The notes beneath the pieces were generated by a model. That model did not search any database. It was not told the DNA's origin and saw only the letters and a program-made list of their open reading frames with translations. Both the position numbers and the translations under genes were made by a program. This document shows positions 541-63,262 of a DNA stretch of 64,000 bases, piece after piece. This DNA comes from Bacteroidales bacterium (lineage in GTDB: Bacteria; Bacteroidota; Bacteroidia; Bacteroidales; VadinHA17). The stretch is taken from positions 3,797 to 67,796 of the forward strand of contig JADGPU010000005.1 in assembly GCA_017882305.1 (NCBI GenBank), in the 5' to 3' direction. Numbering within the stretch: the stretch's first letter is position 1; each line of letters opens with the position of its first letter.

Positions 541-596
541 AGGTTATAGGTTCACGAATAACGAAGGTAAAAATAAAAATAACAATTACAACAACA
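541..596. repeat. Heptad word array (pairs of related 7-mers)
   Basis: AGGTTAT AGGTTCA CGAATAA CGAAGGT AAAAATA AAAATAA CAATTAC AACAACA, read directly. Confidence 0.7.
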
Positions 597-1019
597 AATT
601 CTCATTTTTTATTCTAAACAAAGAAAAAGTTATGAATTATTGCAGACAAAAGATTGTCTTCAAATATTATACATTAAGTAAGATTAACCGCAATCGAGTG
701 AAATTGAATGCAATTTAGACACAAACTAAATAAGAATATTAATTTTTTATAATAAAATACACAAATACCGCAATGACGTAATACCGGGCTATATAATATA
801 ATGGTATATCCAATAAGTATACTTAATGGTTGTTTTATAAGATTGCTTCGTCGCTTCTCTCCTCGCAGATAAGAACGGACTTTTCGATCAACGATCACTT
901 CATTTTGAAGCCAAATAACGTATATTTGCCACATTAAACTTAGACCGGAAAAATGAAAACCCTCAGCAAATGCAGAGGTTATATAATAATAAGGTATTAT
1001 TTTTTTATAACGGAAATCA

Positions 1020-1697
1020 ATGAAAATATTGATTGTTGAAGATGAACGGAAGGTAGCATCATTTATAAAAAAGGGACTTGAAGAAAACAATTACGATACT
1101 GAAATAGTATATGATGGATTGTCTGCTGAAAAACTTGCCCAGCTCTACAAATATGACCTCTTCATACTTGATATCATAATTCCGGGAATAAGCGGTCTCG
1201 ATTTATGTAAAAAACTTAAAAAGTTAAATTCAAACGTACCGGTGCTGATGCTTACCGCACTGGGGACAACAGATGATAAAATTATTGGATTTGAAGCCGG
1301 TGCAAATGATTATCTTGTTAAACCATTTGAATTCAGGGAACTGCTTGCAAGAGTTAAGGTTTTACTGAAGAGCACGAATCAGTCACACGACACAATAAAC
1401 AAGCTTATCGTCGGTGACCTGGAACTTGATCTGGATAAGAAAATTGCCACCCGGGGAAGTTCGCATATTGATCTGACTGCCAAAGAGTTTTCTTTACTTG
1501 AATACTTTATGAGGAATAGCGGCCGGGTATTATCACGGATCGATATTGCTGAAAAGGTCTGGGATATAAAGTTTGATTTCGGTACAAATGTTGTAGATGT
1601 TTATGTCAACTTCTTACGAAAGAAAATTGATAAGGGATTTGATAATAAACTGATCCATACAAGGGTTGGATTTGGCTATGTTTTTGGAGATTTTTAG
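1020..1697 (+). CDS. OmpR/PhoB-family response regulator
   Basis: Receiver domain with acceptor Asp context (DLFILDIIIPG). C-terminal winged helix (LTAKEFSLLEYFMRNSGRVLSR..VDVYVNFLRKKID). Confidence 0.9.
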   Translation: MKILIVEDERKVASFIKKGLEENNYDTEIVYDGLSAEKLAQLYKYDLFILDIIIPGISGLDLCKKLKKLNSNVPVLMLTALGTTDDKIIGFEAGANDYLVKPFEFRELLARVKVLLKSTNQSHDTINKLIVGDLELDLDKKIATRGSSHIDLTAKEFSLLEYFMRNSGRVLSRIDIAEKVWDIKFDFGTNVVDVYVNFLRKKIDKGFDNKLIHTRVGFGYVFGDF

Positions 1698-1698
1698 A

Positions 1699-3069
1699 AT
1701 GCAGATCAGAACCAGATTAGCTTTGCAGTTTCTCCTGCTTGGAGGAATAATTATGATAATCGCATCAATTGCAATCTATTTTTCTTCGGCCAGCTTCAGG
1801 AAGGAAGACTTTTATAACCGCCTCTGGAATAAAGCCAGGAGCACAGCTAATTTATTGTTTAATGCATCTAAAGTTGATGCAAATCGTGTCCTGGGAATCG
1901 AAAAGAATAATATTGCCAGCCTGCAAAATGAAAAAATAATTATTATCAATTTTAATAATGATGTTGTTTACAGCTCAGATGAAAAGAAGGAAATAGAAAT
2001 CAGGAATAACATACTCGAAAGAGTCAGATTAGGATATAAGGTATACTATAAGCAGTATCCCTTTGAAGTTATAGGTACATTATATTTTACAACTTATGAC
2101 AGGTTTGTTATTATTGCTGCAGCTGTTGACACAGAGGGATCCGCTCGTCTGGGAAAATTGGAGATTATTCTGATAATTGTTTGTCTGATCAGCCTTTTAT
2201 TGTTTTTTATTGCAGGATGGTTCTATTCGGGGAGGGCACTCAAACCTATATCAGATGTGGTAAAAAAGGTAGAAGATATCTCCATAACAAGCCTGAATTT
2301 AAGAGTGGTTGAGGGTAATGGAACTGACGAGATCGGAAGGCTTGCAAAAACATTTAATAAAATGCTTGAACGTCTTGAGACATCATTTGCCATGCAAAAG
2401 GATTTTATTGCAAACGCATCGCATGAACTAAGGACGCCGCTTACTTCCATAAACGGACAACTGGAGGTGTTGATAATGAAAGACCGTTCAACGGCAGAAT
2501 ACAAGTCGGCACTGGCTTCTGTTCTTGATGATATTAAATCCCTGATTGACCTCTCAAACAGGTTACTGCTTATTGCCCGCACAAGCGCAGAGGGTCCGGT
2601 GAATTTAAACAATAAGATCAGGATTGATGAAATTCTGTGGCAGGTCCAGGAGGAAATGAAAAAGTTCAATAATGATTACCATATAAATATTTCAATGGAT
2701 AATTCATTAACCGATTCTGACCAGATGATTGTTATTGGAGACGGATATTTGTTAAAGGTTGCTGTTTCAAATATTATAGAAAATGCATGCAAATTTTCAC
2801 CTGACCATACTGTAAATATAAAATTCCAGCATATCGAGAAATGGATTGAAGTGGTATTTACAGATAGCGGTATTGGTATTTCAGAGGAGGATCTGCTAAA
2901 GATTTTTGAACCTTTTTACCGCGGTGCCAATACAATTTCTATTTCGGGTACGGGGATAGGACTTCCACTTGTTAATCAGATAATTAAAAACCATAATGGT
3001 ATAGTAAAACTCTCATCAAAGATTGGCCAAGGAACTGTTGTTACCGTTTTGCTTCCGACAGTGTCGTAA
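1699..3069 (+). CDS. Sensor histidine kinase (HAMP-HisKA-HATPase)
   Basis: Start moved to ATG 1699 (MQIRTRL), 1 nt after the regulator stop. Two TM segments. H-box FIANASHELRTPL, N-box ENACKFS, G-boxes DSGIGI and GTGIGL. Confidence 0.9.
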   Translation: MQIRTRLALQFLLLGGIIMIIASIAIYFSSASFRKEDFYNRLWNKARSTANLLFNASKVDANRVLGIEKNNIASLQNEKIIIINFNNDVVYSSDEKKEIEIRNNILERVRLGYKVYYKQYPFEVIGTLYFTTYDRFVIIAAAVDTEGSARLGKLEIILIIVCLISLLLFFIAGWFYSGRALKPISDVVKKVEDISITSLNLRVVEGNGTDEIGRLAKTFNKMLERLETSFAMQKDFIANASHELRTPLTSINGQLEVLIMKDRSTAEYKSALASVLDDIKSLIDLSNRLLLIARTSAEGPVNLNNKIRIDEILWQVQEEMKKFNNDYHINISMDNSLTDSDQMIVIGDGYLLKVAVSNIIENACKFSPDHTVNIKFQHIEKWIEVVFTDSGIGISEEDLLKIFEPFYRGANTISISGTGIGLPLVNQIIKNHNGIVKLSSKIGQGTVVTVLLPTVS

Positions 3070-3091
3070 AACTATCATTTTTCTACGAATT

Positions 3092-3366
3092 GAATTAAAT
3101 ATTGTGGTGCGCTGCACCTCAGGTTGTTATTATTTACTGCTTTACTACTCCAAATATTTCGCAGCTCTGCTGCTTATTAGAACCTGAAAGTGCACCGTAA
3201 AATCTGTAGATCAGATGGTTATCGAGAAGGTCAAAATTGAAGAGTACTACAATATTTGTAGAATAGATGGGAACCCTAAAGGTTAGAGGTGCAGAGCACC
3301 GAACTATTTGTAGATTATACAGCAATCATTAAAATATAAGGTGCAGAGCACCGCACTATTTGTATT
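3092..3366. repeat. Six copies of a roughly 27-nt unit (5-bp hairpin GGTGC-NNN-GCACC plus A/T-rich tail), two rightward and four leftward, with 52-55 bp phasing
   Basis: Units end at 3118 and 3173 (one orientation) and at 3210, 3262, 3314 and 3366 (other orientation, exact 52-bp period). 3288-3312 and 3340-3364 are 24/25 identical. Outer copies match at 17-20 of 27. Confidence 0.75.
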
Positions 3367-3717
3367 GAACTGGAAAAAAGGGATAACTAAAAACTTTAAT
3401 CCTTTTTTAATTTTATTTTAATCCTCGTTTAATAGCAGTTGCTTACTATTGCTAATGTTAGTTTTTTAATAAAAGGTTTATAATTATCCTGAATTATTTG
3501 CATAGTCAGGATTCGTTTTTAGGGTTACAGGTTAATATTGTTTAGGTTAGTTTTAGCAGGTAAATGAAGTAGTAGGTTTTACAAATCAGGTCGTAATGTT
3601 TAATGGTATATGAAAATTACTATATTTACGGCCTTTTAATTTGTTCAGCCGGTTTTACAATTTGACTGAAAGTATAAAATAAGAACAATATTATATTAAT
3701 AAAAGATAACCCGAACA

Positions 3718-5427
3718 ATGTTTGTAAAAAATAAGTTTTGCAGCAATTCTTATAAATCGAGGTGCTGCGCTTTGCTTTTAATATTTTTGCTGATAATTTC
3801 CGCCTGCCAATCCAATAAAAAATCTTCATCCGGATCACTGAAACAATCTGCTGCAACCGTACCGGCTTCAAATGGTGACTATTTTCAGGAGATCGGGAAA
3901 GAGATCGGTTTGGATTTTGTTCACTCCATCGGCGACAAAGAACTGAGCAACATCGTTGAATCAAGCGGCGCAGGAGCCGCTTTTCTCGATTATGATCAGG
4001 ATGGGTATATTGATTTATATGTCTGTAGTGGCACATGGCTCAAAGGTTTAAGCAGTGGAGAAAAGCCGGCTGAATTGCCTCATAACCATCTTTATCGCAA
4101 CCGCGGAGATGGCACTTTTGAAGATGTCACAAAAAAAGCAGGTGTGGGCGGTCCGTGGTATAGCATGGGAGTTACCGTCGGAGATTATAATAATGATGGA
4201 TATCCCGATTTATTTGTAAGTAATTACGGAACCAACGTACTTTATAAAAATAATGGGGACGGGACATTTACAGATGTTACCAGGCGAGCCAAAGTCGGTG
4301 GAGGAGAAAATGATTTCAGCGTGGGAGCCGTCTGGCTCGATTACGATAATGACGGTTTCCTCGATCTTTATGTAGGCAATTACCTGAATTTTGATCCTAG
4401 TTATAAATACTATTATGCTCCCGATGGATTTCCAGGCCCGTTAGCCTATGATGCCCAGCCGGATGTTCTTTATCATAATAATGGCGATGGCACCTTTGAA
4501 GACGTTACTAAATCCATGGGTATAACAGATCGCGATGGTAGAGCTATGGGCGTGGGAGCAATTGATTATGATGATGATGGTTTCGTTGATATTTATGTAG
4601 CCAATGACCATTCAATGAATTATCTCTGGCATAATAACGGAGGAAAAGGTTTTACAGACATGGGTACACCGTCAGGCACCGCATTCGGTCAGTCAGGAGA
4701 ATCAGCAGTAAGTATGTCAGTGGATTTTGCAGATTACATTGGCAACGGGTTGATGGATATGTTTGTTTCAGATGATAAGTACTGCAGACTCTATGAAAAT
4801 CTGGGAAATGGGATCTTCTCAGATAGGTCATATACATCAGGGATTGCAATGCCGGCTGGACAATATGTAGGTTGGTCATCTTCTTTTATTGACTATAATA
4901 ATGATGGTCTTGTAGATATATATAAAGCCAACGGTGCATTGAAACATCTTTATGGACAGGAAGATCAGTTATTTGAAAACATAGGAAACGGAAAATTTAA
5001 GGATGTTTCAACAGAGAGCGGCAAATATTTCCTTAAAGAACTTGTCGGGCGTGGCGCATGTTTTGGAGATTATGATAATGATGGGGATATTGACGGCTAT
5101 ATTGTGAATCTTAATGACCGGGGAGCTTTCCTGAGAAACAATAAGGGAAATCAGAATAACTGGATCACTTTGAATTTGATCGGAACAACCAGTAACAGGG
5201 ATGGAATAGGTGCAAGAGTAAAAGTGACTTCCGGGGGTAAGGTGCAGACTGCTCAGAAAAAAAGCACAACAGGTTATCTGTCTCAGAATGATCCCAGAAT
5301 GCATTTTGGACTTGCTAAGAATGAAATGATTGAAAAAATTGAGATAAAATGGCCTTCAGGTAAATTACAGGTGCTTGAAAACATCAAGGTCAATCAGATT
5401 CTCTCTGTCAAAGAACCTCCAAAATAA
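3718..5427 (+). CDS. Exported FG-GAP/VCBS-repeat protein with ASPIC/UnbV C-terminal domain (CRTAC1-like), lipoprotein
   Basis: Lipobox LLIISAC. Repeated DYDQDGYIDLYV / DYNNDGYPDLFV / DYDNDGFLDLYV / DYDDDGFVDIYV units. C-terminal NRDGIGARVKV..GYLSQNDPRMHFGL. Confidence 0.85.
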   Translation: MFVKNKFCSNSYKSRCCALLLIFLLIISACQSNKKSSSGSLKQSAATVPASNGDYFQEIGKEIGLDFVHSIGDKELSNIVESSGAGAAFLDYDQDGYIDLYVCSGTWLKGLSSGEKPAELPHNHLYRNRGDGTFEDVTKKAGVGGPWYSMGVTVGDYNNDGYPDLFVSNYGTNVLYKNNGDGTFTDVTRRAKVGGGENDFSVGAVWLDYDNDGFLDLYVGNYLNFDPSYKYYYAPDGFPGPLAYDAQPDVLYHNNGDGTFEDVTKSMGITDRDGRAMGVGAIDYDDDGFVDIYVANDHSMNYLWHNNGGKGFTDMGTPSGTAFGQSGESAVSMSVDFADYIGNGLMDMFVSDDKYCRLYENLGNGIFSDRSYTSGIAMPAGQYVGWSSSFIDYNNDGLVDIYKANGALKHLYGQEDQLFENIGNGKFKDVSTESGKYFLKELVGRGACFGDYDNDGDIDGYIVNLNDRGAFLRNNKGNQNNWITLNLIGTTSNRDGIGARVKVTSGGKVQTAQKKSTTGYLSQNDPRMHFGLAKNEMIEKIEIKWPSGKLQVLENIKVNQILSVKEPPK

Positions 5428-8909: not shown

Positions 8910-10070
8910 ATGAGAAAAACATTACAAAAGAATAGCTTGCAAAAAGCAGTTGCAGTCATTCTTTGTGGTATTTGTTCCGTTGCAGTTATTAATTCTCAGC
9001 CAATAGCTGAAAAAAGTACTGTCAAGACTAATCCTAAAGATGACATAAAGCCAATGCCTGTTTATGGTCATTGGAAGAATTTCACAACAAAAGAAGGATT
9101 GCCTAACGATCATGCTTATTGCGTTCGTATTGATGGAAAGCGTGTATTAGTGGGAACACATGAGGGTATGGCAGTATATGAGGATGGGAAGTGGACAACC
9201 TATACAACAAAAGACGGATTAGCTCATAACGGAGTTGTTTCAATAGATGTCAGTGAACTTACCGGTGATGTATGGATTGGAACATTGGGAGGACTAAACC
9301 GTTGGTCAGCCGGTAAATTTGAGACTTTTAATCAACTAAACAGTGGTCTGCCTAATGATCTGGTCTATTGCGTTTATTGTGACGGGAAAGATGTTTGGAC
9401 TGCCACAGGAGGTGGCGCTGGTCATTATGATACTTATACAAAACAGTGGGAAATTTTCACAGAAAAGAACGCGCCTATGCATGAACCATGGACTTATGGT
9501 GTCTCTGCCGGTGACGGAAAAATTTTTATTGCAGCATGGGGAGGCGGAGTAATTGAATACACTACTAAAACAAAACAATTCAAGGATTATACCGACCCTG
9601 ATGGTGAAATGGAAATAGATCTTCTTCCCGATGATGGCCCGGTTCATGACATAACAACCGGAACTACTTATGGAGATGGTCTTTTATGGGTATCGACATA
9701 TTTTGGTTTAAGCAGTTACGATGGTACACATTGGAAGGGCTACTTTGACCACGACAGCGGCCTGGCAAGTAATTTTATCAATTTTGTAAGAGCAAAGGGG
9801 CCTGTCGTTTTTATTTGCAGTGACAAGGGATTAAGTAGTACGAATGGAAAAAGCTGGGTAACTTATAAGAAGAATGACAAAAACGGTGATGGTGTGGCTA
9901 TTATAAAAAATTATGGCCGTATTGATGATAGTACAGTCGATAAAACTACCAAAGAACTACCAATGGCCCCATGCGTTGCTCATAATTTTGTAATCGGTGT
10001 CGATGCAGATGATCAGTTCCTCTGGGTTGCAACTGAGGGAGGTGTAAGTCGCGGAGAGTTACTGAAATAG
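8910..10070 (+). CDS. Secreted two-component-regulator-propeller (Reg_prop)-like beta-propeller protein
   Basis: Signal peptide. Repeated GLPNDxxYCV..G..W.GT..G motifs (GLPNDHAYCVRIDGKRVLVGTHEGM, GLAHNGVVSIDV..VWIGTLGGLNRW, GLPNDLVYCVYCDGKDVW). Confidence 0.6.
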   Translation: MRKTLQKNSLQKAVAVILCGICSVAVINSQPIAEKSTVKTNPKDDIKPMPVYGHWKNFTTKEGLPNDHAYCVRIDGKRVLVGTHEGMAVYEDGKWTTYTTKDGLAHNGVVSIDVSELTGDVWIGTLGGLNRWSAGKFETFNQLNSGLPNDLVYCVYCDGKDVWTATGGGAGHYDTYTKQWEIFTEKNAPMHEPWTYGVSAGDGKIFIAAWGGGVIEYTTKTKQFKDYTDPDGEMEIDLLPDDGPVHDITTGTTYGDGLLWVSTYFGLSSYDGTHWKGYFDHDSGLASNFINFVRAKGPVVFICSDKGLSSTNGKSWVTYKKNDKNGDGVAIIKNYGRIDDSTVDKTTKELPMAPCVAHNFVIGVDADDQFLWVATEGGVSRGELLK

Positions 10071-10140
10071 TTGAAATAGTTGACATGTTTAAGAATTGAA
10101 AAAATTGAAATAGTGGAAAGAGTGGAAAGAGTTGAAATAA
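10062..10140 (+). repeat. 9-mer array TKGAAAKAG filling the whole spacer between two genes
   Basis: CTGAAATAG TTGAAATAG (16 nt) TTGAAAAAA TTGAAATAG TGGAAAGAG TGGAAAGAG TTGAAATAA. The first unit contains the upstream stop and the last runs into the ATG at 10140. Confidence 0.85.
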
Positions 10141-19537: not shown

Positions 19538-19580
19538 GTAGATACGCCCAAGTAGAGACGCCCAAGTTGGGCGTCTCTAC
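19538..19580 (+). terminator. 29-nt perfect palindrome preceded by a tandem copy of its left arm
   Basis: GTAGATACGCCCAA + GTAGAGACGCCCAAGTTGGGCGTCTCTAC (14-bp stem), 9 nt after the CRTAC1-like stop. No U-tract follows. Confidence 0.45.
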
Positions 19581-20951: not shown

Positions 20952-21900
20952 AGATCCAGTTTTACTGACCAATGACCAGTGGATAATCTCCAGGAGGGGA
21001 AACAAAAATATTGTTGACCCTCAAAGGCCCTATGGATGGCTGGTAGAAAAAGAACGAACCACTTCAGGGAAAATTGAAGATACAGGAATCATTTTTCTGA
21101 CTAACAGGGAATGCTCCTTTCATTGCCTGATGTGTGATCTGTGGAAAAACACAACAGATGAATCCGTTGCTATCGGTTCGATTCCAAAACAGATTGGATG
21201 GGCATTGGAACAAATGCCAGATATTAAATATCTTAAACTCTATAACAGCGGAAGTTTCTTTGATGCAAGGGCTATTCCTGAGGACGACTATCAGGAAATT
21301 GCGTCACTCTTAAAAAATCTCGAAACAGTAATCGTTGAATGTCATCCGAGGCTCGTTAACAATAAATGTCTGAATTTCAGGGATATGCTAAAACCTGATT
21401 TGCATGTTGCCATGGGACTGGAAACTGTACATCCTGAGATTCTCCGGAAACTGAATAAGCAGATGACAGTAGGGGATTTCAGGAATTCTGTAAGATTTCT
21501 TTCAAAACATGGCGTACATTCAAGGGCATTTATTCTGCTCAGGCCTCCACTGCTCTCCGAATCAGAAGGCATTTATTGGGCTGAACGTTCAATCGACTTT
21601 GCATTCGATTCCGGGGTTGAGTGTTGCACTATTATTCCTGTCAGGGCAGGAAACGGGGCAATGGATTTTTTAATGGAAAAAGGTGACTTTAGCTTGCCTG
21701 ATATTCACTCTCTTGAAACAGTTCTTGAATACGGAATAGGGTTAAAAACAGGTCGTGTATTTGCAGATGTCTGGGATATGGGTCTATTTTCTTCTTGCAA
21801 AAAATGTATTGATAAAAGAACCAATCGTATAGTCGCGATGAACCAGAGCCAGGAAATAGTCAATGCGGTTGAATGTGAATGCAATCACATATTAAGATAA
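20944..21900 (+). CDS. Radical SAM enzyme, family unassigned
   Basis: Start moved to ATG 20944, giving an 8-nt ATGAATGA overlap with the upstream stop. CX3CX2C in NRECSFHCLMCDLW. LKLYNSGSFFD. C-terminal Cys cluster CKKC..CEC. Confidence 0.8.
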   Translation: MNEDPVLLTNDQWIISRRGNKNIVDPQRPYGWLVEKERTTSGKIEDTGIIFLTNRECSFHCLMCDLWKNTTDESVAIGSIPKQIGWALEQMPDIKYLKLYNSGSFFDARAIPEDDYQEIASLLKNLETVIVECHPRLVNNKCLNFRDMLKPDLHVAMGLETVHPEILRKLNKQMTVGDFRNSVRFLSKHGVHSRAFILLRPPLLSESEGIYWAERSIDFAFDSGVECCTIIPVRAGNGAMDFLMEKGDFSLPDIHSLETVLEYGIGLKTGRVFADVWDMGLFSSCKKCIDKRTNRIVAMNQSQEIVNAVECECNHILR

Positions 21901-21936
21901 AAGATAAAAGTAAAAAGACAAAAGTGAAAAACAACT
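21895..21936 (+). repeat. AAGAYAA heptad element, copy 1
   Basis: AAGATAA AAGATAA AAGTAAA AAGACAA AAGTGAA AAACAAC. The first unit contains the radical-SAM stop codon. Confidence 0.85.
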
Positions 21937-21949
21937 TTTAACATTGACT

Positions 21950-21998
21950 CTAAACGCTAAACGCTTAACTAGTTGACCGGGTACCCAGGACCCAGCAA
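21950..21998. repeat. Further heptad words
   Basis: CTAAACG CTAAACG CTTAACT (21950-21970) and CGGGTAC CCAGGAC CCAGCAA (21978-21998). Confidence 0.6.
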
Positions 21999-22795: not shown

Positions 22796-22830
22796 GATAT
22801 CTATATTAGCTGTGTAAATGTAAGAAAAAT

Positions 22831-22900
22831 AGTCTTGGAGTCTTGAAGTCTCTGTGGCCCTCTTTGATTCTTTGTGTATCTCTGTGACAGTTCTTAAAAG
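22831..22900. repeat. 8-mer word array ending in the CTGTG-N-CAGTTCTTAAAA core
   Basis: AGTCTTGG AGTCTTGA AGTCTCTG TGGCCCTC TTTGATTC TTTGTGTA TCTCTGTG ACAGTTCT. Confidence 0.65.
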
Positions 22901-23016
22901 ACCTCCATGGAATTACCTTCTATAATCCGAACATTATTAACATCACACTGTTTGTCTGATAGATTTAGTATTTTTGTGAAGAAAGGAATTACATTAATTA
23001 CCCGATTTCCGGAACA

Positions 23017-24753: not shown

Positions 24754-24767
24754 GGACGACCGTTAAG

Positions 24768-24787
24768 AAATTGCCCGGGGGCAATTT
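24768..24787 (+). terminator. Hairpin after the rhodanese gene
   Basis: AAATTGCC-CGGG-GGCAATTT: 8-bp stem, tetraloop, T-rich 3' side. Confidence 0.5.
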
Positions 24788-24814
24788 TAGGGAGGAGCCT
24801 GACTGCAGGGTAGG

Positions 24815-24849
24815 CAGAAATCAGAAATCAGGAATCAGGAATAAGAATT
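24815..24849 (+). repeat. Heptad array CAGRAAT x5 abutting a start codon
   Basis: CAGAAAT CAGAAAT CAGGAAT CAGGAAT AAGAATT, then T and ATG 24851. Confidence 0.85.
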
Positions 24850-24850
24850 T

Positions 24851-27464: not shown

Positions 27465-27574
27465 ATTCTTAACTTTTTTGGTTTAAATTAATTATCAAAA
27501 TTATTGATTATTTGAATCTGGATTATGATTCCAATAGACAATTTAACAAATAAAATGAGTAAATGTTTAAAATT

Positions 27575-27644
27575 GGTACGCGGTGCACGGCATGCAATAC
27601 ACGGTAAAGGGTACCGCAAACCGCAAGCCACACACCATATACCG
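27575..27644. repeat. Ten GG/CC-phased heptads around a central GGTACC
   Basis: GGTACGC GGTGCAC GGCATGC AATACAC GGTAAAG GGTACCG CAAACCG CAAGCCA CACACCA TATACCG. Confidence 0.7.
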
Positions 27645-27685
27645 CTGTTATGACTATATTTGTTTAATATTAGTAAAATTCTAAA

Positions 27686-30575: not shown

Positions 30576-30598
30576 AGCAAAATTTTATTATATTTCTT

Positions 30599-34181: not shown

Positions 34182-34210
34182 TTATCATTATTTTTATCGG
34201 ATCCAGGGTT

Positions 34211-34274: not shown

Positions 34275-34321
34275 CCTTAAATCTTTTTATATTTCTTGAT
34301 TAATTGATTTGGAATTCATAA

Positions 34322-34351
34322 TTTCGTGATCGTTAACGAAACATTAATGTT
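34322..34351. promoter_or_regulatory. Candidate operator: two adjacent palindromes upstream of uxaC
   Basis: TTTCGT-gatcgtta-ACGAAA (34322-34341) and the perfect AACATTAATGTT (34340-34351), 36-65 nt upstream of ATG 34387. The 11-mer TTAACGAAACA recurs at 41482-41492 upstream of gnd. Confidence 0.3.
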
Positions 34352-34386
34352 CAAATTTAAAAAATTTTATAATCCCTTTTAAAGAT

Positions 34387-38088: not shown

Positions 38089-38970
38089 ATGAACCCTCAA
38101 GAACAATTACTGGCATTAAGGCCTGAGAAAGAGTTTTTCATAGGGATAGATTCCGATGGTTGTGCTTTTGACACCATGGAGATAAAACAGAAAGAGTGTT
38201 TCTGCCCTAACTTCATAAAGTACTTCAGGATGCAGCCCGTTTCAAAATATGCCCGTGAGACCTGGGAATTTGTGAATCTATATTCAACCAACAGGGGATG
38301 CAATCGGTTCCTTGCAGTAAATGAGACTCTCAGACTTCTGGCAACCCGTCCCGAAATAAAAGCCAGGAATTTCACAGTTCCTTCTGCTGCCCCGCTTGTA
38401 GAATGGACAAAGAAGGAGACGAAACTTGGAAATCCGACACTTAAAAAATATGCAACCGAAATAAATGATCCTTTCATTACAATGACACTCGAATGGTCTC
38501 TGAAGGTAAATGAGGATATCAGTAAAATGGTATTCGGAATAACTCCCTTCCCTTTCGTTAAAGAGTGCCTGGAGAAAATAAAGTCGACTACGGATGTCAT
38601 GGTAGTTTCACAGACACCATATGAAGCACTAAAACGTGAATGGGAAGAAAACAGAATCGACCATTTTTTGAGGATGATTGCAGGACAGGAACATGGAACT
38701 AAAGCAGAACATCTTAAATATGCTGCCAAGGGTAAGTACCCTGATGAAAAGATACTGATGATCGGTGATGCAAATGGTGATCTGACGGCGGCCAAATCAA
38801 ACGGAGTCCTCTTCTTCCCGATTAATCCGGGAAAAGAAGAAGAATCGTGGGAAAAGCTTTATAAAGAAGGTCTGGACAGGTTCTTTACAGGAAAATTTAA
38901 AGGCGATTATGAAGAGGAACTGATCAGGGAATTTGAGACTTTTCTACCGGAGCAGCCACATTGGAAATAG
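38089..38970 (+). CDS. HAD-superfamily hydrolase (phosphatase-like)
   Basis: Motif I FIGIDSDGCAFD. Motif IV MIGDANGDLTAA. Confidence 0.75.
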   Translation: MNPQEQLLALRPEKEFFIGIDSDGCAFDTMEIKQKECFCPNFIKYFRMQPVSKYARETWEFVNLYSTNRGCNRFLAVNETLRLLATRPEIKARNFTVPSAAPLVEWTKKETKLGNPTLKKYATEINDPFITMTLEWSLKVNEDISKMVFGITPFPFVKECLEKIKSTTDVMVVSQTPYEALKREWEENRIDHFLRMIAGQEHGTKAEHLKYAAKGKYPDEKILMIGDANGDLTAAKSNGVLFFPINPGKEEESWEKLYKEGLDRFFTGKFKGDYEEELIREFETFLPEQPHWK

Positions 38971-39057
38971 GCGACGGGTTGCAGGCGACAGGTGACAGGA
39001 AAACCTAACCTGTTGCCTGACAACTGACGCCTGACGCCTAAAGCCCGACGCCTATTA
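38969..39057. repeat. Opposed heptad arms AGGCGAC / CCTGACG starting in the HAD stop codon
   Basis: (T)AGGCGAC GGGTTGC AGGCGAC AGGTGAC AGG - aaaacctaa - CCTGTTG CCTGACA ACTGACG CCTGACG CCTAAAG CCCGACG CCT. Confidence 0.85.
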
Positions 39058-40396: not shown

Positions 40397-41389
40397 ATGA
40401 TAAACTGGGGAATAATTGGATGTGGTAACGTCACAGAAGTAAAAAGTGGTCCGGCATTTAATAAAGTCAGGGACTCACAACTGATTGCCGTTATGCGCCG
40501 AGACGCCTTCCTGGCTGAAGATTATGCCCGGCGACATAATGTTCCAAAATTTTATTCAAAGGCTTCGGATCTCATTAATGACAAGGATATCAATGCAGTA
40601 TATATTGCCACTCCCCCGGAAAGCCATGCTGAATATGCCATTGAAGTGATAAAAGCTCGCAAGCCGGTTTATATTGAGAAACCAATGGCTGTCAGCTACT
40701 CCGAATGCCTTAAAATAAACAAAGCAGCTGAAAAATATCAGGTTCCGGTTTTTGTAGCATATTACAGAAGAGCGCTTCCCGGGTTCCTCCTGGTTAAAGA
40801 TCTTATTGAAAACGGAGGTATTGGAAAAGTACGTTTTTTGCTGATACAGTTATTCAAGGCTCCTTCTACAGATGAAAAGGCCGGAAAACCATCATGGCGG
40901 GTTGATCCTAAAATGTCAGGCGGAGGACATTTCTTCGATCTGGCCTCCCATCAGCTTGATTATCTTGATTTTCTCTTCGGTCCAATTCAGAAAGTCAAAT
41001 CGATAGCGATAAATCATGCAGGGCTTTATAAAGCTGAAGATTTTGTTTCAGCAGAGTTTATTTTTTATAATAATATTGTTGGAACCGGTACATGGTGTTT
41101 CAGCGTATCACCTGATTGCGATCGGGATACTATCGAGATTATTGGAGACAAAGGGTCCATTAAATTCACAACCTTTAGTTTTGAACCAATTGTTCTTACA
41201 AATGAAAATGGACGTCAGGAGTTTATCAATGAACGTCCTGAGCACGTTCAGTACTATCTTATTGAAAAAATAGTTCAATCACTCAATGGGAACGGTGCCT
41301 CTCCGAGTACTGGAATATCAGGAGCCAGAACAAGTAAGATTATGGATGATATTGTGGCGGGATATTATAAAGACAAAAGACAAAAGTAA
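40397..41389 (+). CDS. Gfo/Idh/MocA-family NAD(P) oxidoreductase
   Basis: INWGIIGCGNV Rossmann start; VYIEKPMA motif. The last codons (KDKRQK-stop) lie inside the AAGAYAA repeat. Confidence 0.85.
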   Translation: MINWGIIGCGNVTEVKSGPAFNKVRDSQLIAVMRRDAFLAEDYARRHNVPKFYSKASDLINDKDINAVYIATPPESHAEYAIEVIKARKPVYIEKPMAVSYSECLKINKAAEKYQVPVFVAYYRRALPGFLLVKDLIENGGIGKVRFLLIQLFKAPSTDEKAGKPSWRVDPKMSGGGHFFDLASHQLDYLDFLFGPIQKVKSIAINHAGLYKAEDFVSAEFIFYNNIVGTGTWCFSVSPDCDRDTIEIIGDKGSIKFTTFSFEPIVLTNENGRQEFINERPEHVQYYLIEKIVQSLNGNGASPSTGISGARTSKIMDDIVAGYYKDKRQK

Positions 41390-41404
41390 AAAGACAAAAG
41401 TGAA
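41370..41404 (+). repeat. AAGAYAA heptad element, copy 2
   Basis: AAGACAA AAGACAA AAGTAAA AAGACAA AAGTGAA. The TAA of unit 3 is the stop codon of the Gfo/Idh/MocA gene. Confidence 0.85.
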
Positions 41405-41515
41405 TATACTAATATAGAGAGAATTAGTCCCGCCTGGCGGGATCGGGGGGCAAAAACCAGCCAAGACGAAATGAGCAATATTTAACGAAACAGTTATAAA
41501 TTCAATCTTTTAGTT

Positions 41516-44321: not shown

Positions 44322-45377
44322 ATGCCTCTAAAAAAGTCAAGGATAAAGGATATCGCGAGGATGGCTGGTGTTTCTATAGGTACGGTAGACCGCGTAATAC
44401 ATGACAGAGGTGAGGTATCAGAAAAAACCAGGCTGAAGGTTCAGAGAATTCTGAAAGAGACCAATTACTCCCCTAATGTATTGGCACAGGTATTGAAATC
44501 AAAAAAACGATTTCATCTTGTTTCACTTCTTCCTGCACCAACCGAAGACAATTCTTTCTGGAAAAAGCATCCACTAGGTATGATCAGGGCTATTGAAGAA
44601 CTCGATCCCTTTCCTGTTACACTCAGTCAGGTAACATTTGATATGCAGAGCGAAGATGATTTTCAAAAGAAAACCAGTATCGTTTTAGATCTCAAGCCTG
44701 ATGGAGTACTTCTTGCACCTATATTCAAGTCAGAATCTGTTGCATTTTGTTCACGGCTTCAGAAAGAAAAGGTTCCTGTTGTTTTTATCGACGGTTATAT
44801 TGAAAATACTGATTTTCTGGCATATATCGGTGAAGATATCTTCCAGAGCGGAAGAGTTGCCGGACAACTTATCGATATGGTAACTCCCGAAGAAAGTGAT
44901 ATACTCGTTGTAACAATCGCAAGAAATATCCGGAATGTCCATCACCTTACCAACCGCACTGAGGGATTTCTGAGTTATTTCCGTAAATCAGGTAAAAACA
45001 AAGGCAGGAAGATTATCCTTAATATTCCTGACCACTCTACCGATGGTGTAAAAAGGGTCATCGATACGGTGTTTCTTGAAAATCCCGGAATAGGTTCAAT
45101 TTTTATTACAGGGTCAAAATCATACCTCATTGCTTTATACCTGGAAAATAAAGGTTTAAAATCAATCAATCTTATCGGATATGATCTTCTGGATTCAAAT
45201 GTCAGGTTTTTAAAATCTGGGACCACCAGGTTTCTGATCGGTCAGCGACCTGAGGAACAATCATATAAGGGGATAAAGAAATTATTTGAATACCTCTCAC
45301 TTCATAAAATTCCCGACAAAATCGAATACCTTCCTGTTGATATAGTAACATCTGAAAATGTCGACTTTTTTTTATAA
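44322..45377 (+). CDS. LacI-family transcriptional regulator
   Basis: N-terminal HTH IKDIARMAGVSIGTVDRVIH plus a periplasmic-binding-like sugar domain. Confidence 0.9.
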   Translation: MPLKKSRIKDIARMAGVSIGTVDRVIHDRGEVSEKTRLKVQRILKETNYSPNVLAQVLKSKKRFHLVSLLPAPTEDNSFWKKHPLGMIRAIEELDPFPVTLSQVTFDMQSEDDFQKKTSIVLDLKPDGVLLAPIFKSESVAFCSRLQKEKVPVVFIDGYIENTDFLAYIGEDIFQSGRVAGQLIDMVTPEESDILVVTIARNIRNVHHLTNRTEGFLSYFRKSGKNKGRKIILNIPDHSTDGVKRVIDTVFLENPGIGSIFITGSKSYLIALYLENKGLKSINLIGYDLLDSNVRFLKSGTTRFLIGQRPEEQSYKGIKKLFEYLSLHKIPDKIEYLPVDIVTSENVDFFL

Positions 45378-48470: not shown

Positions 48471-48573
48471 AATAATTTAGTATTTTATAAACCTTAAAAA
48501 TCGACTTCAACAAAATTGTACTAATACTTTTTTCCAATTACAATTTAGATTTTTGTTTTTAAAATAATTCTAA

Positions 48574-48650
48574 TTACCCCCTTCCCAACCTTCCCACAAG
48601 GGGGAAGGAGCAATCCATTTCCCCCGTGGGGGAAATAAGAAAGGGGGTAA
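48574..48650. repeat. C-run/G-run element with predicted three-helix fold, copy 1
   Basis: Outer stem TTACCCCCTT/AAGGGGGTAA. Inner hairpins CCTTCCC..GGGAAGG and ATTTCCCC-CGTG-GGGGAAAT. Confidence 0.7.
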
Positions 48651-52683: not shown

Positions 52684-52759
52684 CCCCCCTGTCCCCTCAT
52701 TTGGGGGATCAAAAACCGAGAAGACAAAGCCCCCCATTTTGGGGGGTTGGGGGTAAGAA
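52683..52759. repeat. C-run/G-run element, copy 2
   Basis: Outer ACCCCC/GGGGGT. Inner TCCCC-tcatttg-GGGGA and CCCCCC-atttt-GGGGGG. Shares the 3' 11-mer GGGGGTAAGAA with copy 1. Confidence 0.7.
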
Positions 52760-53235: not shown

Positions 53236-53323
53236 AAATGTTATTCAAGTTGTCTATTTAATGTTTAACTTTGGGGATTGTTGAGATTTAAACAAGTTTA
53301 TTGACAAACTAAGCAAAAATATC

Positions 53324-53569
53324 ATGGCTAAAACTATCACTTTTAACGAACTACGGAAAATTAAAGACCAGTTACCCTCCGGTAGTATGAGACAGATTGC
53401 TGAAAAACTGGATTTGAATGAAGAGACAGTTAGAAACTACTTCGGAGGGAGAAATTTTGACAAGGGCCAAAGTGTTGGAATCCATTTTGAACAGGGACCA
53501 GATGGAGGTATAGTTACAATAGACGATACGACCATACTTGATCTGGCACAGAAAATGATCAACTACTAA
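53324..53569 (+). CDS. Small hypothetical protein (81 aa), possible HTH
   Basis: MRQIAEKLDLNEETVRNYF resembles an HTH. Followed by a strong hairpin with a T-run. Confidence 0.5.
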   Translation: MAKTITFNELRKIKDQLPSGSMRQIAEKLDLNEETVRNYFGGRNFDKGQSVGIHFEQGPDGGIVTIDDTTILDLAQKMINY

Positions 53570-54460: not shown

Positions 54461-54463
54461 TTC

Positions 54464-54571
54464 ATTAACCGCAAAGGTCGCAAAGGTTTAATACCTAAGG
54501 CCGCAAAGAAATTCATGACATGATTATAACTTTGCGTTCTTTGCGCCTACTTTGAGTACTTTGCGGTTAAT
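54464..54571. repeat. CGCAAAG / CTTTGCG word element (copy 2) with 13-bp perfect terminal inverted repeats
   Basis: ATTAACCGCAAAG (54464-54476) and CTTTGCGGTTAAT (54559-54571). The interior is made of CGCAAAG words on the left and CTTTGCG words on the right. Confidence 0.8.
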
Positions 54572-54605
54572 AAAGGTATTTTAGCTATCATAAAAAAACT
54601 TGGAT

Positions 54606-56071: not shown

Positions 56072-56158
56072 GTCTTGTGGTCATTCAGTCATGCAGTAGT
56101 GCAGGCTTGAAGTCTTGATGTCTGATAGCTCCTTTTGACTTTTGACTTTTGTCTTAAG
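56072..56158. repeat. 8-mer GTC-word array plus a reverse-oriented AAGACAA element (copy 4)
   Basis: GTCTTGTG GTCATTCA GTCATGCA GTAGTGCA GGCTTGAA GTCTTGAT GTCTGATA. Then TTTTGAC TTTTGAC TTTTGTC, which on the minus strand reads AAGACAA AAGTCAA AAGTCAA right after the Rrf2 stop. Confidence 0.8.
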
Positions 56159-61448: not shown

Positions 61449-62144
61449 ATGCAAATACAGGATTTAAAAAATCAACTTAACGGGATTTCAATAGAGCATC
61501 AGTTAAATAAGCTGGTTTCTCTGTTCCCGGAAAAGATTATATTTACTACAAGTCTGGGAATTGAAGATCAGGTCATAACCCATAAAATATTCAAAAACAA
61601 CCTGGCTATTAAAATAGCGACACTCGACACCGGCAGGCTATTTCCTCAGACATATGATGTTCTCTCCAATACAGTAATCAGGTATAACAAAACAATAGAT
61701 ATCTATTTTCCTGAATATGAAGCTGTTGAAAAAATGGTAACAGAAAAGGGGCCACTTAGTTTTTACCAGTCAGTAGAGAATAGGAAAGAGTGTTGCAGAC
61801 TTAGAAAAGTCGTTCCCTTAAACAGGGCTCTGGCAGGCGTGAAGTGCTGGATATCCGGGATCAGGGCAGATCAGTCAGATGACCGTAACCAGATGGATTG
61901 GCTGGAATATGATGAGGCCAAAAATCTTTATAAATTTTATCCTCTTTTTAACTGGTCATTTGATGAGGTAAAGAACTTTATAAAAGAAAATAATGTCCCA
62001 TACAATTCACTGCACGACAAAGGATATGTCAGCATCGGATGTGAACCATGTACCAGGGCTGTAAAACCAGGTGGAGATTTCCGATCAGGAAGATGGTGGT
62101 GGGAGAACGACGGAGCAAAAGAATGTGGTTTACATATTAAATAA
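61449..62144 (+). CDS. cysH: Adenylyl-/phosphoadenylyl-sulfate reductase (Fe-S type CysH)
   Basis: C-terminal KECGLH signature. A CC pair (KECCRLRK) plus CEPC, typical of the Fe-S (APS-preferring) subclass. Confidence 0.9.
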   Translation: MQIQDLKNQLNGISIEHQLNKLVSLFPEKIIFTTSLGIEDQVITHKIFKNNLAIKIATLDTGRLFPQTYDVLSNTVIRYNKTIDIYFPEYEAVEKMVTEKGPLSFYQSVENRKECCRLRKVVPLNRALAGVKCWISGIRADQSDDRNQMDWLEYDEAKNLYKFYPLFNWSFDEVKNFIKENNVPYNSLHDKGYVSIGCEPCTRAVKPGGDFRSGRWWWENDGAKECGLHIK

Positions 62145-62287
62145 AGGCTAAGGCTAAGGCTAAGGCAAAAGGAAGGAAAGTTGCTGGTTACTCGTTGCTG
62201 GTCGCTGGTTTTGATCTCCAAATAGCAACAAGCAACAAGCAACAAGCAACAAGCAACAAGCAACAAGTAACGAGCAACAAGCAACAA
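62144..62287. repeat. Three consecutive word arrays after cysH
   Basis: AAGGCT x3 or more (62144-62169). GTTGCTG GTTACTC GTTGCTG GTCGCTG GTTTTGA (62180-62214). GCAACAA x6, GTAACGA, GCAACAA x2 (62225-62287). Confidence 0.9.
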
Positions 62288-62300
62288 AAAAAGCAATGAA

Positions 62301-63206
62301 ATGAAAAACATAAATGACGAACATCTTAAAGAACTTGAAGCTGAAGCGATCTTTGTTATGCGGGAGGTCGCTGCTCAGTTTGAGAACAAAGTATTATTGT
62401 TTTCAGGAGGAAAGGATTCGATTGTGCTTGTACATCTTGCAAGGAAAGCATTCTGGCCTGCCAGGATACCATTTAGTCTGATGCATATCGATACCGGTCA
62501 CAATTTTGAAGAGACCTTAAAGTTCCGCGATGATCTTGCAAAAGAATTCGGGGCAGAACTTCTTGTCAGGTATGTTCAGGATTCAATAAATATCGGAAGA
62601 GTGGTTGAAGAACAGGGTGTTAATGCAAGCCGTAACAAAGCACAGTCAATTACCCTTCTGGATGCCATCGAAGAACTCAAAATCGATGTGGCAATTGGAG
62701 GCGGCCGGCGTGACGAGGAGAAGGCCCGGGCTAAAGAGAGGTTTTTCTCACATAGAAATGAATTTGGTCAATGGGACCCTAAGAACCAGCGTCCTGAACT
62801 TTGGAACATATTTAACGGCCGGAAGCATTCCGGAGAACATTTCAGAGTATTCCCGATAAGCAACTGGACTGAATTGGATGTCTGGCAATATATTCTGAAT
62901 GAAAATATTAAACTTCCTGAATTGTACTATACCCATAAACGAAAGATATTCAGTCGTAATGGCGTTTATCTGGCCTGGGCCCCTTTCATGCAGCTTAAAC
63001 CAAGTGAACATGTATTTGAGTCTGATGTGCGTTGCCGGACAATCGGAGATATAACCTGTACAGGGGTAACACTCTCGAAGGCAGAATCACTTGAAGAAAT
63101 AATATCCGAAATAGCAGCCACGAGAGTCACTGAAAGAGGGGGAAGATACGATGATAAAAGATCAGAAGCAGCGATGGAGGACCGGAAGAAGGAAGGCTAT
63201 TTCTGA
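62301..63206 (+). CDS. cysD: Sulfate adenylyltransferase subunit 2
   Basis: HLKELEAEAIFVMREV..LFSGGKDS..HIDTGHNF..RGGRYDDK. Confidence 0.92.
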   Translation: MKNINDEHLKELEAEAIFVMREVAAQFENKVLLFSGGKDSIVLVHLARKAFWPARIPFSLMHIDTGHNFEETLKFRDDLAKEFGAELLVRYVQDSINIGRVVEEQGVNASRNKAQSITLLDAIEELKIDVAIGGGRRDEEKARAKERFFSHRNEFGQWDPKNQRPELWNIFNGRKHSGEHFRVFPISNWTELDVWQYILNENIKLPELYYTHKRKIFSRNGVYLAWAPFMQLKPSEHVFESDVRCRTIGDITCTGVTLSKAESLEEIISEIAATRVTERGGRYDDKRSEAAMEDRKKEGYF

Positions 63207-63208
63207 TT

Positions 63209-63262
63209 AAGACAAAAGATAAAAGTAAAAAGACAAAAGTAGGTACATGCCGTGGCATGTCC
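63209..63262 (+). repeat. AAGAYAA heptad element copy 3, fused to an ACATGCC-GT-GGCATGT palindrome
   Basis: AAGACAA AAGATAA AAGTAAA AAGACAA AAGTAGG, then GGTACATGCCGTGGCATGTCC. Lies between cysD and cysN. Confidence 0.85.

Follow-up and report, generated by a model that had tools for sequence, protein, structure and literature searches.

The short tandem arrays that occupy the spacers of this DNA, a window of 64,000 nt from a Bacteroidales bacterium, are probably long-unit microsatellites (units of 6-10 nt, mode 7), made in place by slippage and saturating the intergenic DNA of their lineage. A first-pass annotation had listed 16 arrays, mostly of 7-nt words, as an STRR-like landscape. At the period claimed, every one of the 16 showed more self-match than 500 shuffles, 15 of them at p<=0.002, the exception being the weak array at the left end of the window (Table 1). 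TRF recovered the listed arrays independently and found 21 arrays in the window's spacers, against 1.8 in dinucleotide shuffles (maximum 6). Of the 307 bases covered in a strict array scan, 306 were non-coding (4.6 kb in all) and one lay in the 59 kb of coding sequence, bearing out the impression that nothing comparable exists within genes. That nearly every spacer is built in this way was an overstatement of a strong excess: a scored array was present in 15 of the 31 spacers of at least 30 nt, or roughly 20 of the 31 if the annotation's degenerate arrays are counted too.

An excess of arrays, over both shuffled and coding DNA, was found in the spacers of the clade as well as in those of the window. 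Clade spacers held 112 arrays against 14.7 +/- 2.7 in dinucleotide shuffles, 69 of them at period 7 or 14 (2.3 in shuffles), in counts that include orthologous junctions, so that not all arrays are independent; at independent loci the proportion was 16 of 32. Array density was 4.3 per kb of spacer and 0.34 per kb of coding DNA, and arrays took up about 13% of clade spacer DNA (3548 of 26339 nt). Thirty syntenic relatives, all uncultured Bacteroidales MAGs, had 3.7-4.3 arrays per kb of spacer, with 50-60% at period 7 or 14, whereas other Bacteroidota had 1.4-1.8 per kb and a flat period spectrum (1.35 per kb for the other lineages in the comparison that gave 4.3 for the clade). An independent metagenome set replicated this contrast (3.74 per kb in the clade, 1.83 in others). 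The excess over chance, the heptamer mode and the restriction to non-coding DNA and to one lineage are direct observations, and it is an uncultured lineage of fen/peat Bacteroidales to which the landscape is specific. An assembly artefact can be discounted, as the same arrays recur in six contigs that come from five independent metagenome samples (Logan SRR10489830; JGI 2124908028, 2124908038 and 3300086394; ENA ERZ27256624).

Table 1. Arrays and hairpin elements of the window, with the evidence for each
Feature	Position	Strand	Evidence and remarks
Weak degenerate array, period 6-7, upstream of minus-strand gene	541-597	.	p=0.012, best period 6 (500 shuffles); weakest claimed array
TGAAATAGT x8.8, fills whole spacer	10063-10139	+	TRF; self-match vs shuffles; stop TAG (10068-10070) inside first unit, runs to ATG at 10141; no secondary structure (fold z=+0.4)
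Family b copy, CGCAAAG/CTTTGCG words, ends in CTTTGCGGTTAA	17721-17814	+	nhmmer E=7e-20; fold z=-4.5
14-nt duplication GTAGAGACGCCCAA x2.1 of 5' arm, perfect 13-bp hairpin	19538-19580	+	TRF; fold z=-6.6; no U-tract after hairpin
Convergent spacer, three arrays	21894-21998	.	TRF; self-match vs shuffles; AAAAGNN array overlapping stop TAA of plus-strand gene, CTAAACG x2.9, GGGTACC/CAGGACC beside minus-strand stop at 22019
AGTCTTGA x2.6, then family a half copy (CTCTGTG words + CAGTTCTTAAAA), divergent spacer	22831-22899	.	TRF; self-match vs shuffles; nhmmer E=8.5e-6
CAGAAAT/CAGGAAT x4.7, ends 1 nt before ATG at 24851	24815-24849	+	TRF; self-match vs shuffles; 12 units in orthologous spacer of L006
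Opposed degenerate heptamer arms GGTNCNC / ACCGCAA, divergent spacer	27575-27644	.	Self-match vs shuffles; minus-strand fold z=-4.4
Family a hairpin between kduD and kduI	30594-30703	-	Fold z=-9 to -10; four CTCTGTG and four CACAGAG cores at 10-11-nt spacing around GTTCTTTAAAA loop
AGGCGTG x5.6 + ATGCCTG x6.9, opposed arms	31577-31700	-	TRF; fold; sense (minus) strand array CAGGCAT starts at stop TAG of GH5 gene
Family a half copy, then hairpin GGACATGCCATGGCATGTCC	32955-33029	-	nhmmer E=0.007
CCATTATT x5-7 beside start of minus-strand GH88 gene, divergent spacer	34211-34278	.	TRF; self-match vs shuffles; no secondary structure
AGGCGAC words from within stop TAG of HAD gene, paired with GCCTGAC arm	38969-39057	+	TRF; fold z=-8; GGTGTGA arrays in their place in L004 and L005
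AAAGACA/AAAAGTA array	41369-41404	+	TRF; array supplies the final six codons (KDKRQK*) of gene 40397-41389 and runs on beyond the stop; orthologous arrays in L009 and L011 do likewise
Family b full copy (TTAACCGCAAAG...CTTTGCGGTTAA)	54462-54575	+	nhmmer E=1e-26; fold z=-5.8; identical in strain contig L084
Convergent spacer, degenerate 8-mers GTCNTGNN after plus-strand gene	56072-56155	.	TRF; self-match vs shuffles; also AAAAGNN array, sense orientation, past stop of minus-strand Rrf2 gene
cysH-cysD spacer filled by three arrays	62144-62287	+	TRF; self-match vs shuffles; fold; (T)AAGGC x4 starting in stop TAA, GTTGCTG arm, AGCAACA x9.1
AAAAGNN array 2 nt past cysD stop, then hairpin GGTACATGCCGTGGCATGTCC	63209-63261	+	TRF

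The comparison drawn by the annotation was with the STRR repeats of heterocystous cyanobacteria; their words, STRR1 (CCCCAGT), STRR2 (TTGGTCA) and STRR3 (CAACAGT), were reportedly described by Mazel et al. in 1990. The likeness holds in that both consist of tandem heptamers in intergenic DNA, each genome having several families of words, and the arrays described here are mostly heptameric, non-coding, different between spacers and lineage-specific. However, no array of an STRR1, STRR2 or STRR3 word was found in 1.8 Mb (window plus loci), making these arrays an analogue of that family and not a member of it; the phylum is different and the word repertoire here is much larger. Nor do the arrays resemble phase-variation repeats, which lie within the coding region or between the promoter elements of a surface or variable gene: the strict scan gave none in coding DNA, and the neighbouring genes are housekeeping or catabolic. 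The annotation had known of no equivalent description for a Bacteroidota-type genome, but earlier ones exist. Direct repeats of TAACTGA and of other heptamers were reported by MacGregor 2015 from five Bacteroidetes, one of which, Paludibacter, belongs to the Bacteroidales (PMC4679880), and the same anatomy has been described elsewhere (PMC4692102; see below). The TAACTGA repeats are likewise intergenic, with other heptamers in the spacers of Gramella and Aequorivita, and close relatives have shorter spacers free of repeats (PMC4679880). Their sets lie just upstream of start codons (PMC4679880), whereas the arrays studied here are anchored at stops; boundaries within 5 nt of a start numbered 9 against 10 expected, and no TAACTGA array was present in the same 1.8 Mb.

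The arrays have the properties of long simple sequence repeats, being composed of 5-11-nt units placed head-to-tail above composition expectation, with heptamers the commonest class and units that are not a multiple of three kept out of coding DNA. Heptamers are the commonest class of such repeats in prokaryotes, and slippage has been proposed as their cause (Mrazek 2007, as cited in PMC4679880). Genomes rich in 5-11-nt repeats have been reported from Burkholderia, cyanobacteria, actinobacteria, Xanthomonas and some archaea (Mrazek, Guo and Shah 2007, via PMC4679880 and PMC4060949). As summarised in those two papers, the long repeats resemble the present ones in being tandem, mostly heptameric, non-coding, sporadic across lineages and attributed to poorly repaired slippage. 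The fen/peat clade, with the share of spacer DNA given above, is not among the rich genomes that these accounts name.

Comparison of orthologous spacers, which the annotation had proposed for detecting copy-number variation, revealed changes of word, copy number and presence. An array was present in 56 of 94 orthologous spacers and the top word differed among genomes, while the shortest co-directional junction measured 12 nt and lacked an array and the longest measured 297 nt, of which 227 nt were array. Differences of a single unit were observed directly in two cases only, both next to identical coding sequence in near-identical strains: AAGGCT is present three times instead of four in the cysH-cysD spacer of L081, and the AGGCGTG array of L083 is one unit shorter. 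Degenerate arrays were unchanged between strain contigs, and the spacer at 56072-56155 was nearly unchanged in three of them. We propose that a short local word would be duplicated through replication slippage and that the array would then gain or lose whole units, since mismatch repair deals poorly with loops of at least 4 nt (PMC4060949). New variants would spread along the array and older arrays would decay by point mutation. A step of 7 nt would put a gene out of frame, which would explain the absence of arrays from coding sequence; and because arrays would persist only where nothing is selected, they would extend through unconstrained DNA as far as the stop codon, often entering it, but would end before promoters and leaders are reached at the opposite end of the spacer.

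As the annotation had noticed, arrays start at or inside stop codons, at 10068 (TAG), 21898, 31699-31701 (minus strand), 38968 and 41387, and they do so also at 62142. Array boundaries lay within 5 nt of a stop 35 times against 12 expected. These stop-abutting arrays were G-rich and C-poor on the sense (mRNA) strand in 33 instances against 2, a count that includes orthologues and rests on about 16 distinct junctions. With those positions of the unit that fall on the stop codon left out, their GC skew was still +0.36; at independent loci it was positive in 9 of 10 arrays. TAG was enriched beside arrays (17 of 37 array-adjacent stops, 68 of 256 overall). This anatomy was already known in 2015 from the stop-abutting, inverted-paired and hypervariable heptamers GGGAATC of Xanthomonas and GGGGA(T/C)T of Nostoc (Rehm 2015; PMC4692102); the pattern has precedents in both cyanobacteria and Xanthomonas. 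There too the coding strand is G-rich when the repeat overlaps a stop or lies within 50 bp of one, convergent pairs are frequent, coding and divergent regions rarely carry the repeats, and length and sequence vary among close relatives (PMC4692102). In contrast, the antisense preference upstream of ORFs reported there (PMC4692102) is not seen here (10:10), and in place of one dominant quadruplex-forming word there are dozens of unrelated words, most of them unable to form that structure. Our addition is that, in a fen/peat Bacteroidales lineage, nearly all repeats touching a stop have their G-rich strand as the mRNA strand. That polarity, together with G3-containing units in a few relatives (for example CAGGGTG x9 in L012), is what would favour G-quadruplex-forming repeats acting through four-stranded DNA or RNA, of the kind of Xanthomonas GGGAATC. 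We judge this extremely improbable, given that no window array has a three-G run in every unit or contains four or more units with such a run, and that most words (AAGGCT, AAAAGAC, AGGCGTG, TGAAATAGT, CAGAAAT) cannot form a canonical quadruplex.

Of 113 arrays, 14 had an inverted partner (2-3 in controls). Opposed arms, which the annotation had noted for several arrays, folded with z of -4 to -10 at 17728, 19530, 27570, 30590, 31572, 38965 and 54461, and of about -3 at 62145; simple arrays had z near 0. Two dispersed palindromic families belong to the hairpin class, family a (CTCTGTG/CACAGAG) and family b (CGCAAAG/CTTTGCG), both forming long imperfect hairpins of 7-bp helices with 3-4-nt loops between them. 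Family a has one full and two half copies in the window, and its copy at the kdu junction is conserved in L005, L007, L009, L088, L090, L092 and L096. Family b occupies at least six non-orthologous sites (17721 and 54462 in the window, the kduI-kduD junction of L001/L003/L010, and L090, L097 and L076); the TTAA at both of its ends is part of the palindrome and so is uninformative on target-site duplication. Core identity in family a is 92% and linker identity 55%. Since the paired cores are conserved and the linkers are not, the hairpin or the word would appear to be under selection. REP/BIME of Enterobacteria are imperfect palindromes of ~100 nt that lack U-tracts and are scattered through spacers, some of them inside operons. 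Families a and b share each of these features as well as presence or absence between relatives, and intercistronic elements of this type are most likely their closest comparison, although the arms here are built of repeated 7-nt cores at 10-11-nt spacing and copy number is low in the sampled DNA. The dispersal of both families, their presence, absence and mutual replacement at the kduI-kduD junction, and the occurrence of family b in another Bacteroidales lineage (L076) might suggest that all arrays are insertions of small MITE- or REP-like mobile elements, already repeated on arrival. This is highly improbable: most words occur at a single junction of a single genome, strains differ by single-unit gains and losses, arrays incorporate the local stop codon, simple arrays lack flanking target-site duplications and terminal repeats, and no plasmid record matches either hairpin family.

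Among the options that the annotation had left open (terminators, RNA-protein platforms, slippage), the evidence favours slippage, with an RNA role conceivable for the stop-abutting subset or the hairpin elements. A general version of that role would hold that the arrays exist to serve in RNA, either as platforms in 3' UTRs or between cistrons, where each heptamer would take one RNA-binding protein in the manner of cold-shock or S1-type domains, or as hairpins for protection or processing, with slippage only their mode of variation. The stop-codon polarity, replicated in independent loci, would fit, as would the almost invariable sense orientation of AAAAGNN arrays after stops, the drift of family a linkers around conserved cores, and the arrays inside the likely operons kduI-kduD and cysH-cysD-cysN, where they are probably transcribed; MacGregor 2015 raised binding by cold-shock and S1 proteins for heptamers (PMC4679880). 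We nevertheless regard it as unlikely. Arrays are dispensable at operon junctions, sister genomes managing the same junction with 6-20 nt and no array, and words at one junction are unrelated between genomes, which leaves no common binding motif. Some arrays (22831, 27575) are found in divergent spacers, where they precede probable promoters, and polarity is lost in those more than 5 nt from a stop. None of 27 family a base pairs shows a compensatory change (there is little variation in the cores, and such substitutions as are seen break pairs), and the hairpin at 31572-31700 folds far better antisense (-68.7 vs -43.5 kcal/mol).

Slippage alone does not predict the 33:2 polarity or the TAG enrichment at stops, nor the recurrence of the word families AAAAGNN, AGGCNNN and ACCCAGN at unrelated junctions across the clade. 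The polarity implies that the sequence allowed after a stop is subject to a strand-specific filter, and our guess is that C-rich untranslated RNA would be avoided because of loading of the Rho termination factor inside operons. It is rather unlikely, though conceivable, that the arrays as a whole are more than debris of slippage and reflect a process or filter that is strand-specific and tied to gene 3' ends, with the hairpins of words being protein-recognised modules and not passive palindromes. If so, only G-rich, C-poor words would be amplified or tolerated directly after a stop, perhaps keeping untranslated RNA free of Rho inside operons or reflecting array growth coupled to transcription, and the modules would be 7-bp cores at one-helical-turn spacing, conserved in the cores and free in the linkers.

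The position of many arrays just after stops and the strong hairpins in eight window spacers also bear on a reading of the arrays as intrinsic terminators, or replacements for them, built from repeated words. We consider this very unlikely, and canonical terminators are unsupported: the array hairpins lack the U-tract that directly follows the G+C-rich stem-loop of an intrinsic terminator, half of the arrays have no secondary structure, and several lie in probable operons or in divergent spacers with probable promoters. Terminator-like sites were not enriched (12 vs 14.9 and 13 vs 15.6 in shuffles) and none coincided with an array. A conventional hairpin with a U-tract stands separately at 24768-24790, adjoining an array.

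Tandem Repeats Finder recovered essentially every one of the tandem word arrays that a first-pass annotation had read in the intergenic spacers, and all 16 stretches matched themselves at the claimed period better than 500 shuffles (p<=0.002 in 15). The array at 541-596, described there as heptameric, did beat its shuffles, though weakly (p=0.012) and with a best period of 6. As had been claimed, the arrays are non-coding: of 307 bases covered in a strict scan, 306 fell within the non-coding DNA (4.6 kb) and a single one within the coding DNA (59 kb). The spacers of the window hold 21 arrays, compared with 1.8 in dinucleotide-preserving shuffles (maximum 6). The statement that nearly every spacer is so built was too strong, as of 31 spacers 30 nt or longer, 15 have a scored array, or about 20 when degenerate arrays from that annotation are counted. 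An assembly artefact, a possibility it had raised, is ruled out, since five independent metagenome samples yielded six short contigs with the same arrays, and other projects yielded contigs of relatives, as long as 1.66 Mb, that have arrays too. Three of the six (L081, L082 and L083, short-read metagenome contigs with proteins identical to those of the window) end inside AAGGCT and AGGCGTG arrays, indicating that the repeats are break points of short-read assemblies.

Positions in the window of arrays, hairpins and other spacer features
Feature	Position	Description
Array starts in or at stop codons	10068; 21898; 31699-31701 (minus strand); 38968; 41387; 62142	
Opposed arms	17728; 19530; 27570; 30590; 31572; 38965; 54461	very stable hairpins, fold z -4 to -10
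Opposed arms, weaker	62145	
Plain arrays	10060; 21901; 22825; 24754; 34205; 56070; 63207	folding no better than chance
Spacers array-free or with other repeats	14082; 28787; 35785; 42971; 48471; 51853; 52684; 56579; 61401	
Family a	30594-30703	four CTCTGTG and four CACAGAG cores, 10-11-nt spacing, around a GTTCTTTAAAA loop
Family a half copies	22845-22899; 32955-33007	
Family b	17721; 54462	TTAACCGCAAAG...CTTTGCGGTTAA, about 110 nt
52-nt tandem repeat	3253-3364	2.2 copies, hairpin GGTGCAGAGCACC in each; 648-nt spacer upstream of FG-GAP/ASPIC gene 3718-5427
11-nt repeat	3395-3433	follows the 52-nt tandem repeat
C5/G5-run short hairpins	48571-48650; 52684-52746; 41425-41452	e.g. CCCCCCATTTTGGGGGG
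Near-identical hairpins	33010-33029; 63241-63261	GGACATGCCATGGCATGTCC, GGTACATGCCGTGGCATGTCC; two unrelated gene ends, each adjoining a word array
Palindrome	about 34318-34340	TTTCGTGATCGTTAACGAAA; divergent GH88/uxaC spacer
Small ORF	53320-53562	81 codons, starts ATGGCTAAAACTATC...; inside a 370-nt spacer of the 100-aa ORF list; probably an unlisted small gene

The host lineage consists of uncultured Bacteroidales represented by MAGs from fen, peat, lake and soil (top protein identities 86-89%). Its genes in the window are ordinary, comprising hexuronate and pectin catabolism (GH88, GH5, kduI, kduD, uxaC, uxaE and a LacI-family regulator), a sulfate-assimilation operon (porin, sbp, cysTWA, PAPS reductase, cysD, cysN), two-component systems and FG-GAP/ASPIC proteins. 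Among 50 window proteins annotated with Pfam, none for replication, repair or reverse transcription that might account for the arrays was found, and an Rfam search of the window gave no hit to an RNA family at gathering threshold. Together with 14 syntenic relatives, the window carries 4.3 arrays per kb of spacer and 0.34 per kb of coding DNA, with period 7 or 14 in 70 of 117; the 62 other loci from the same search (Bacteroidota, Calditrichota, Ignavibacteria) carry 1.35 per kb of spacer and have a flat period spectrum. An independent set gave 3.74 per kb of spacer for KduI loci at >=72% identity, about half at period 7 or 14, and 1.83 for the remaining KduI loci, about a quarter at those periods. 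Measured against shuffled spacers, this fen and peat clade holds 112 arrays vs 14.7 +/- 2.7 expected, and 69 vs 2.3 at period 7 or 14. The trait also occurs in a few unrelated Bacteroidia loci (L040, L042, L076).

We compared 11 gene junctions, each in as many as 15 genomes, with 70-95% identity between the flanking proteins. An array is present in 56 of 94 orthologous spacers, and the top word varies by genome. The junction after the HAD gene, for example, carries a GGCGACA/GCCTGAC hairpin in the window and in relatives L006 and L009, seven to 13 copies of GGTGTGA in L004 and L005, and 14-40 nt without an array in L002 and L012. Co-directional, operon-like junctions are between 12 nt (array-free) and 297 nt long (227 nt of array), and the arrays are thus add-ons dispensable to the operon. 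Between near-identical strains sharing the same flanking protein, whole units are gained or lost in perfect arrays (AAGGCT three vs four times; AGGCGTG by one unit fewer), and degenerate arrays are constant except for point differences. Population copy-number data are thin, as exact-protein look-ups for strain contigs left three of seven without a match and a metagenome scan for close strains returned nothing closer than 84%. This is how microsatellites behave: they arise in place, lengthen and shorten by units, acquire variants that spread along the array, and then decay.

Array boundaries lie within 5 nt of a stop codon in 35 cases vs 12 expected from random placement within the spacer, and within 5 nt of a start codon in nine vs 10 expected. 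Offsets of -2, -1 and 0 to the stop predominate, and the first unit often includes the stop codon. The last six codons of a GFO/IDH/MocA oxidoreductase (40397-41389), the C-terminal tail KxKRQK*, are encoded by A-rich heptamers of an array; this tail is conserved in three genomes (window 41369-41389; L009 1392-1425; L011 2162-2180). On the simplest reading, arrays would fill all unconstrained DNA: nothing directly 3' of a stop codon would be under selection, and the start side would be shielded by promoters and leaders.

Arrays abutting stop codons are G-rich and C-poor on the sense strand of the preceding gene, with a mean GC skew of +0.39 to +0.48 and 33 positive vs two negative cases. The signs are 18:18 for arrays 6-50 nt from the stop and 10:10 near start codons. 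General post-stop composition is ruled out as the cause, since the skew in ordinary DNA after stop codons is -0.01. Seeding by stop codons, which lack C, is mostly rejected: with the three stop-coincident unit positions removed, the skew is still +0.36 (26 vs 5). TAG is enriched among array-adjacent stops (17/37 vs 68/256 overall; OR 2.8, p=0.008). Purine-richness, considered as an RNA signal, is weak (0.62 vs 0.59 background). About 16 distinct junctions contribute to the polarity, often with unrelated words at one junction, so it is not one inherited array counted repeatedly, and it was replicated in the independent metagenome loci (9 of 10 arrays positive). Slippage does not predict this polarity. 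We would guess at a transcript-level filter on those arrays that are certainly carried by the upstream mRNA, where C-rich, G-poor untranslated RNA might be avoided because Rho loads onto such RNA.

Canonical terminators were rejected as an explanation of the arrays. Sites combining a hairpin with a T-run are not enriched (12 vs 14.9 and 13 vs 15.6 in shuffles), none of these terminator-like sites coincides with an array, array hairpins lack T-runs, and arrays are found in divergent spacers as well. The opposed arms that had been read in several arrays do form hairpins, and an inverted partner is present for 14 of 113 arrays vs 2-3 in controls. The hairpin at 31572-31700 folds at -68.7 kcal/mol on the strand antisense to the flanking genes vs -43.5 on the sense strand, which argues against mRNA-level selection in that case. 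Template switching within quasi-palindromes could expand both arms alike without selection.

Two hairpin families stand out. At least eight genomes have family a at the kduI-kduD junction; family b, a palindromic element with CGCAAAG/CTTTGCG words, is there instead in L001, L003 and L010, and just 6-36 nt remain in L002, L004, L008, L011 and L012. Pairwise identity in family a is 92% in cores and 55% in linkers, and the paired words are therefore constrained; a covariation test of a putative RNA structure, in cores that hardly vary, found zero pairs with compensatory change, and the observed changes disrupt pairing. Family b recurs in relatives, at several sites that are not orthologous, and in one further lineage of Bacteroidales; it behaves as a small dispersed palindromic element. 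A plasmid search with both families gave no match.

Among the long simple sequence repeats of prokaryotes, heptamers are the commonest, and slippage has been proposed as their origin (Mrazek 2007, as summarised in PMC4679880). In the spacers of certain genomes, 6-11-nt repeats are extremely over-represented, and loops of at least 4 nt are poorly handled by mismatch repair (PMC4060949). The first-pass annotation had likened the landscape to cyanobacterial STRRs, which is right in kind, although the STRR words are absent as arrays; neither these nor TAACTGA words occur in clade arrays. Its suggestion that Bacteroidota offer no comparable description was wrong. MacGregor 2015 reported TAACTGA arrays in five Bacteroidetes, Paludibacter among them, as well as "other heptamer direct repeats" in spacers of Gramella and Aequorivita, repeats that close relatives lack (PMC4679880). 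Rehm 2015 described GGGAATC in Xanthomonas and GGGGAYT in Nostoc, with the coding strand as the G-rich one where the repeat overlaps a stop codon or lies no more than 50 bp from it, many convergent inverted pairs, few repeats in coding and divergent regions, and variation between close relatives (PMC4692102). The Bacteroidales arrays have almost the same anatomy. Unlike Xanthomonas, with one dominant word, this clade uses many unrelated words; in contrast to both systems, most of its words are incapable of forming quadruplexes, and its arrays lack an antisense preference upstream of genes. The host is also a new clade, and we found no published account of such arrays in environmental Bacteroidales.

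Slippage in place, acting on long units in DNA free of constraint, is the likeliest mechanism. Superimposed on it are two hairpin families that are selected or mobile and, at stop codons, an unexplained strand filter. An environmentally abundant uncultured Bacteroidales clade of fen, peat and lake sediment joins the few prokaryotes with heptamer-dominated spacers. Many unrelated words per genome make word-specific explanations, such as quadruplexes, separable from general ones. With this clade, stop-codon polarity is seen in three phyla that are not related, which makes it worthwhile to test for a shared cause, and its occurrence in the third with many different words most deserves follow-up. 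The arrays also inflate and vary spacer length within operons, provide ready-made hypervariable markers for strain tracking in metagenomes and disrupt short-read assembly.

Other features were seen in the same spacers. Relatives L005 and L006 have an extra gene of ~200 codons between the RHS-repeat and hydrolase genes, in the spacer orthologous to 27465-27685; only its last ~60-90 nt are left in the window, L001 and L007, which looks like recent gene loss. A dispersed hairpin, GATTGCTTCGCT(C/T)CGCTCGCAATGAC, is missing from the window and occurs in several spacers of L003, L005 and L007 (orthologous to 22796-23016, 24754-24850 and 34182-34386). The separate C5/G5-run hairpins recur in many clade spacers, including L006, L009, L011, L012, L017 and L018. 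The palindrome TTTCGTGATCGTTAACGAAA is conserved in the clade, the rest of its spacer is not, and it probably serves the LacI-family regulator encoded at 44322-45377 as operator.
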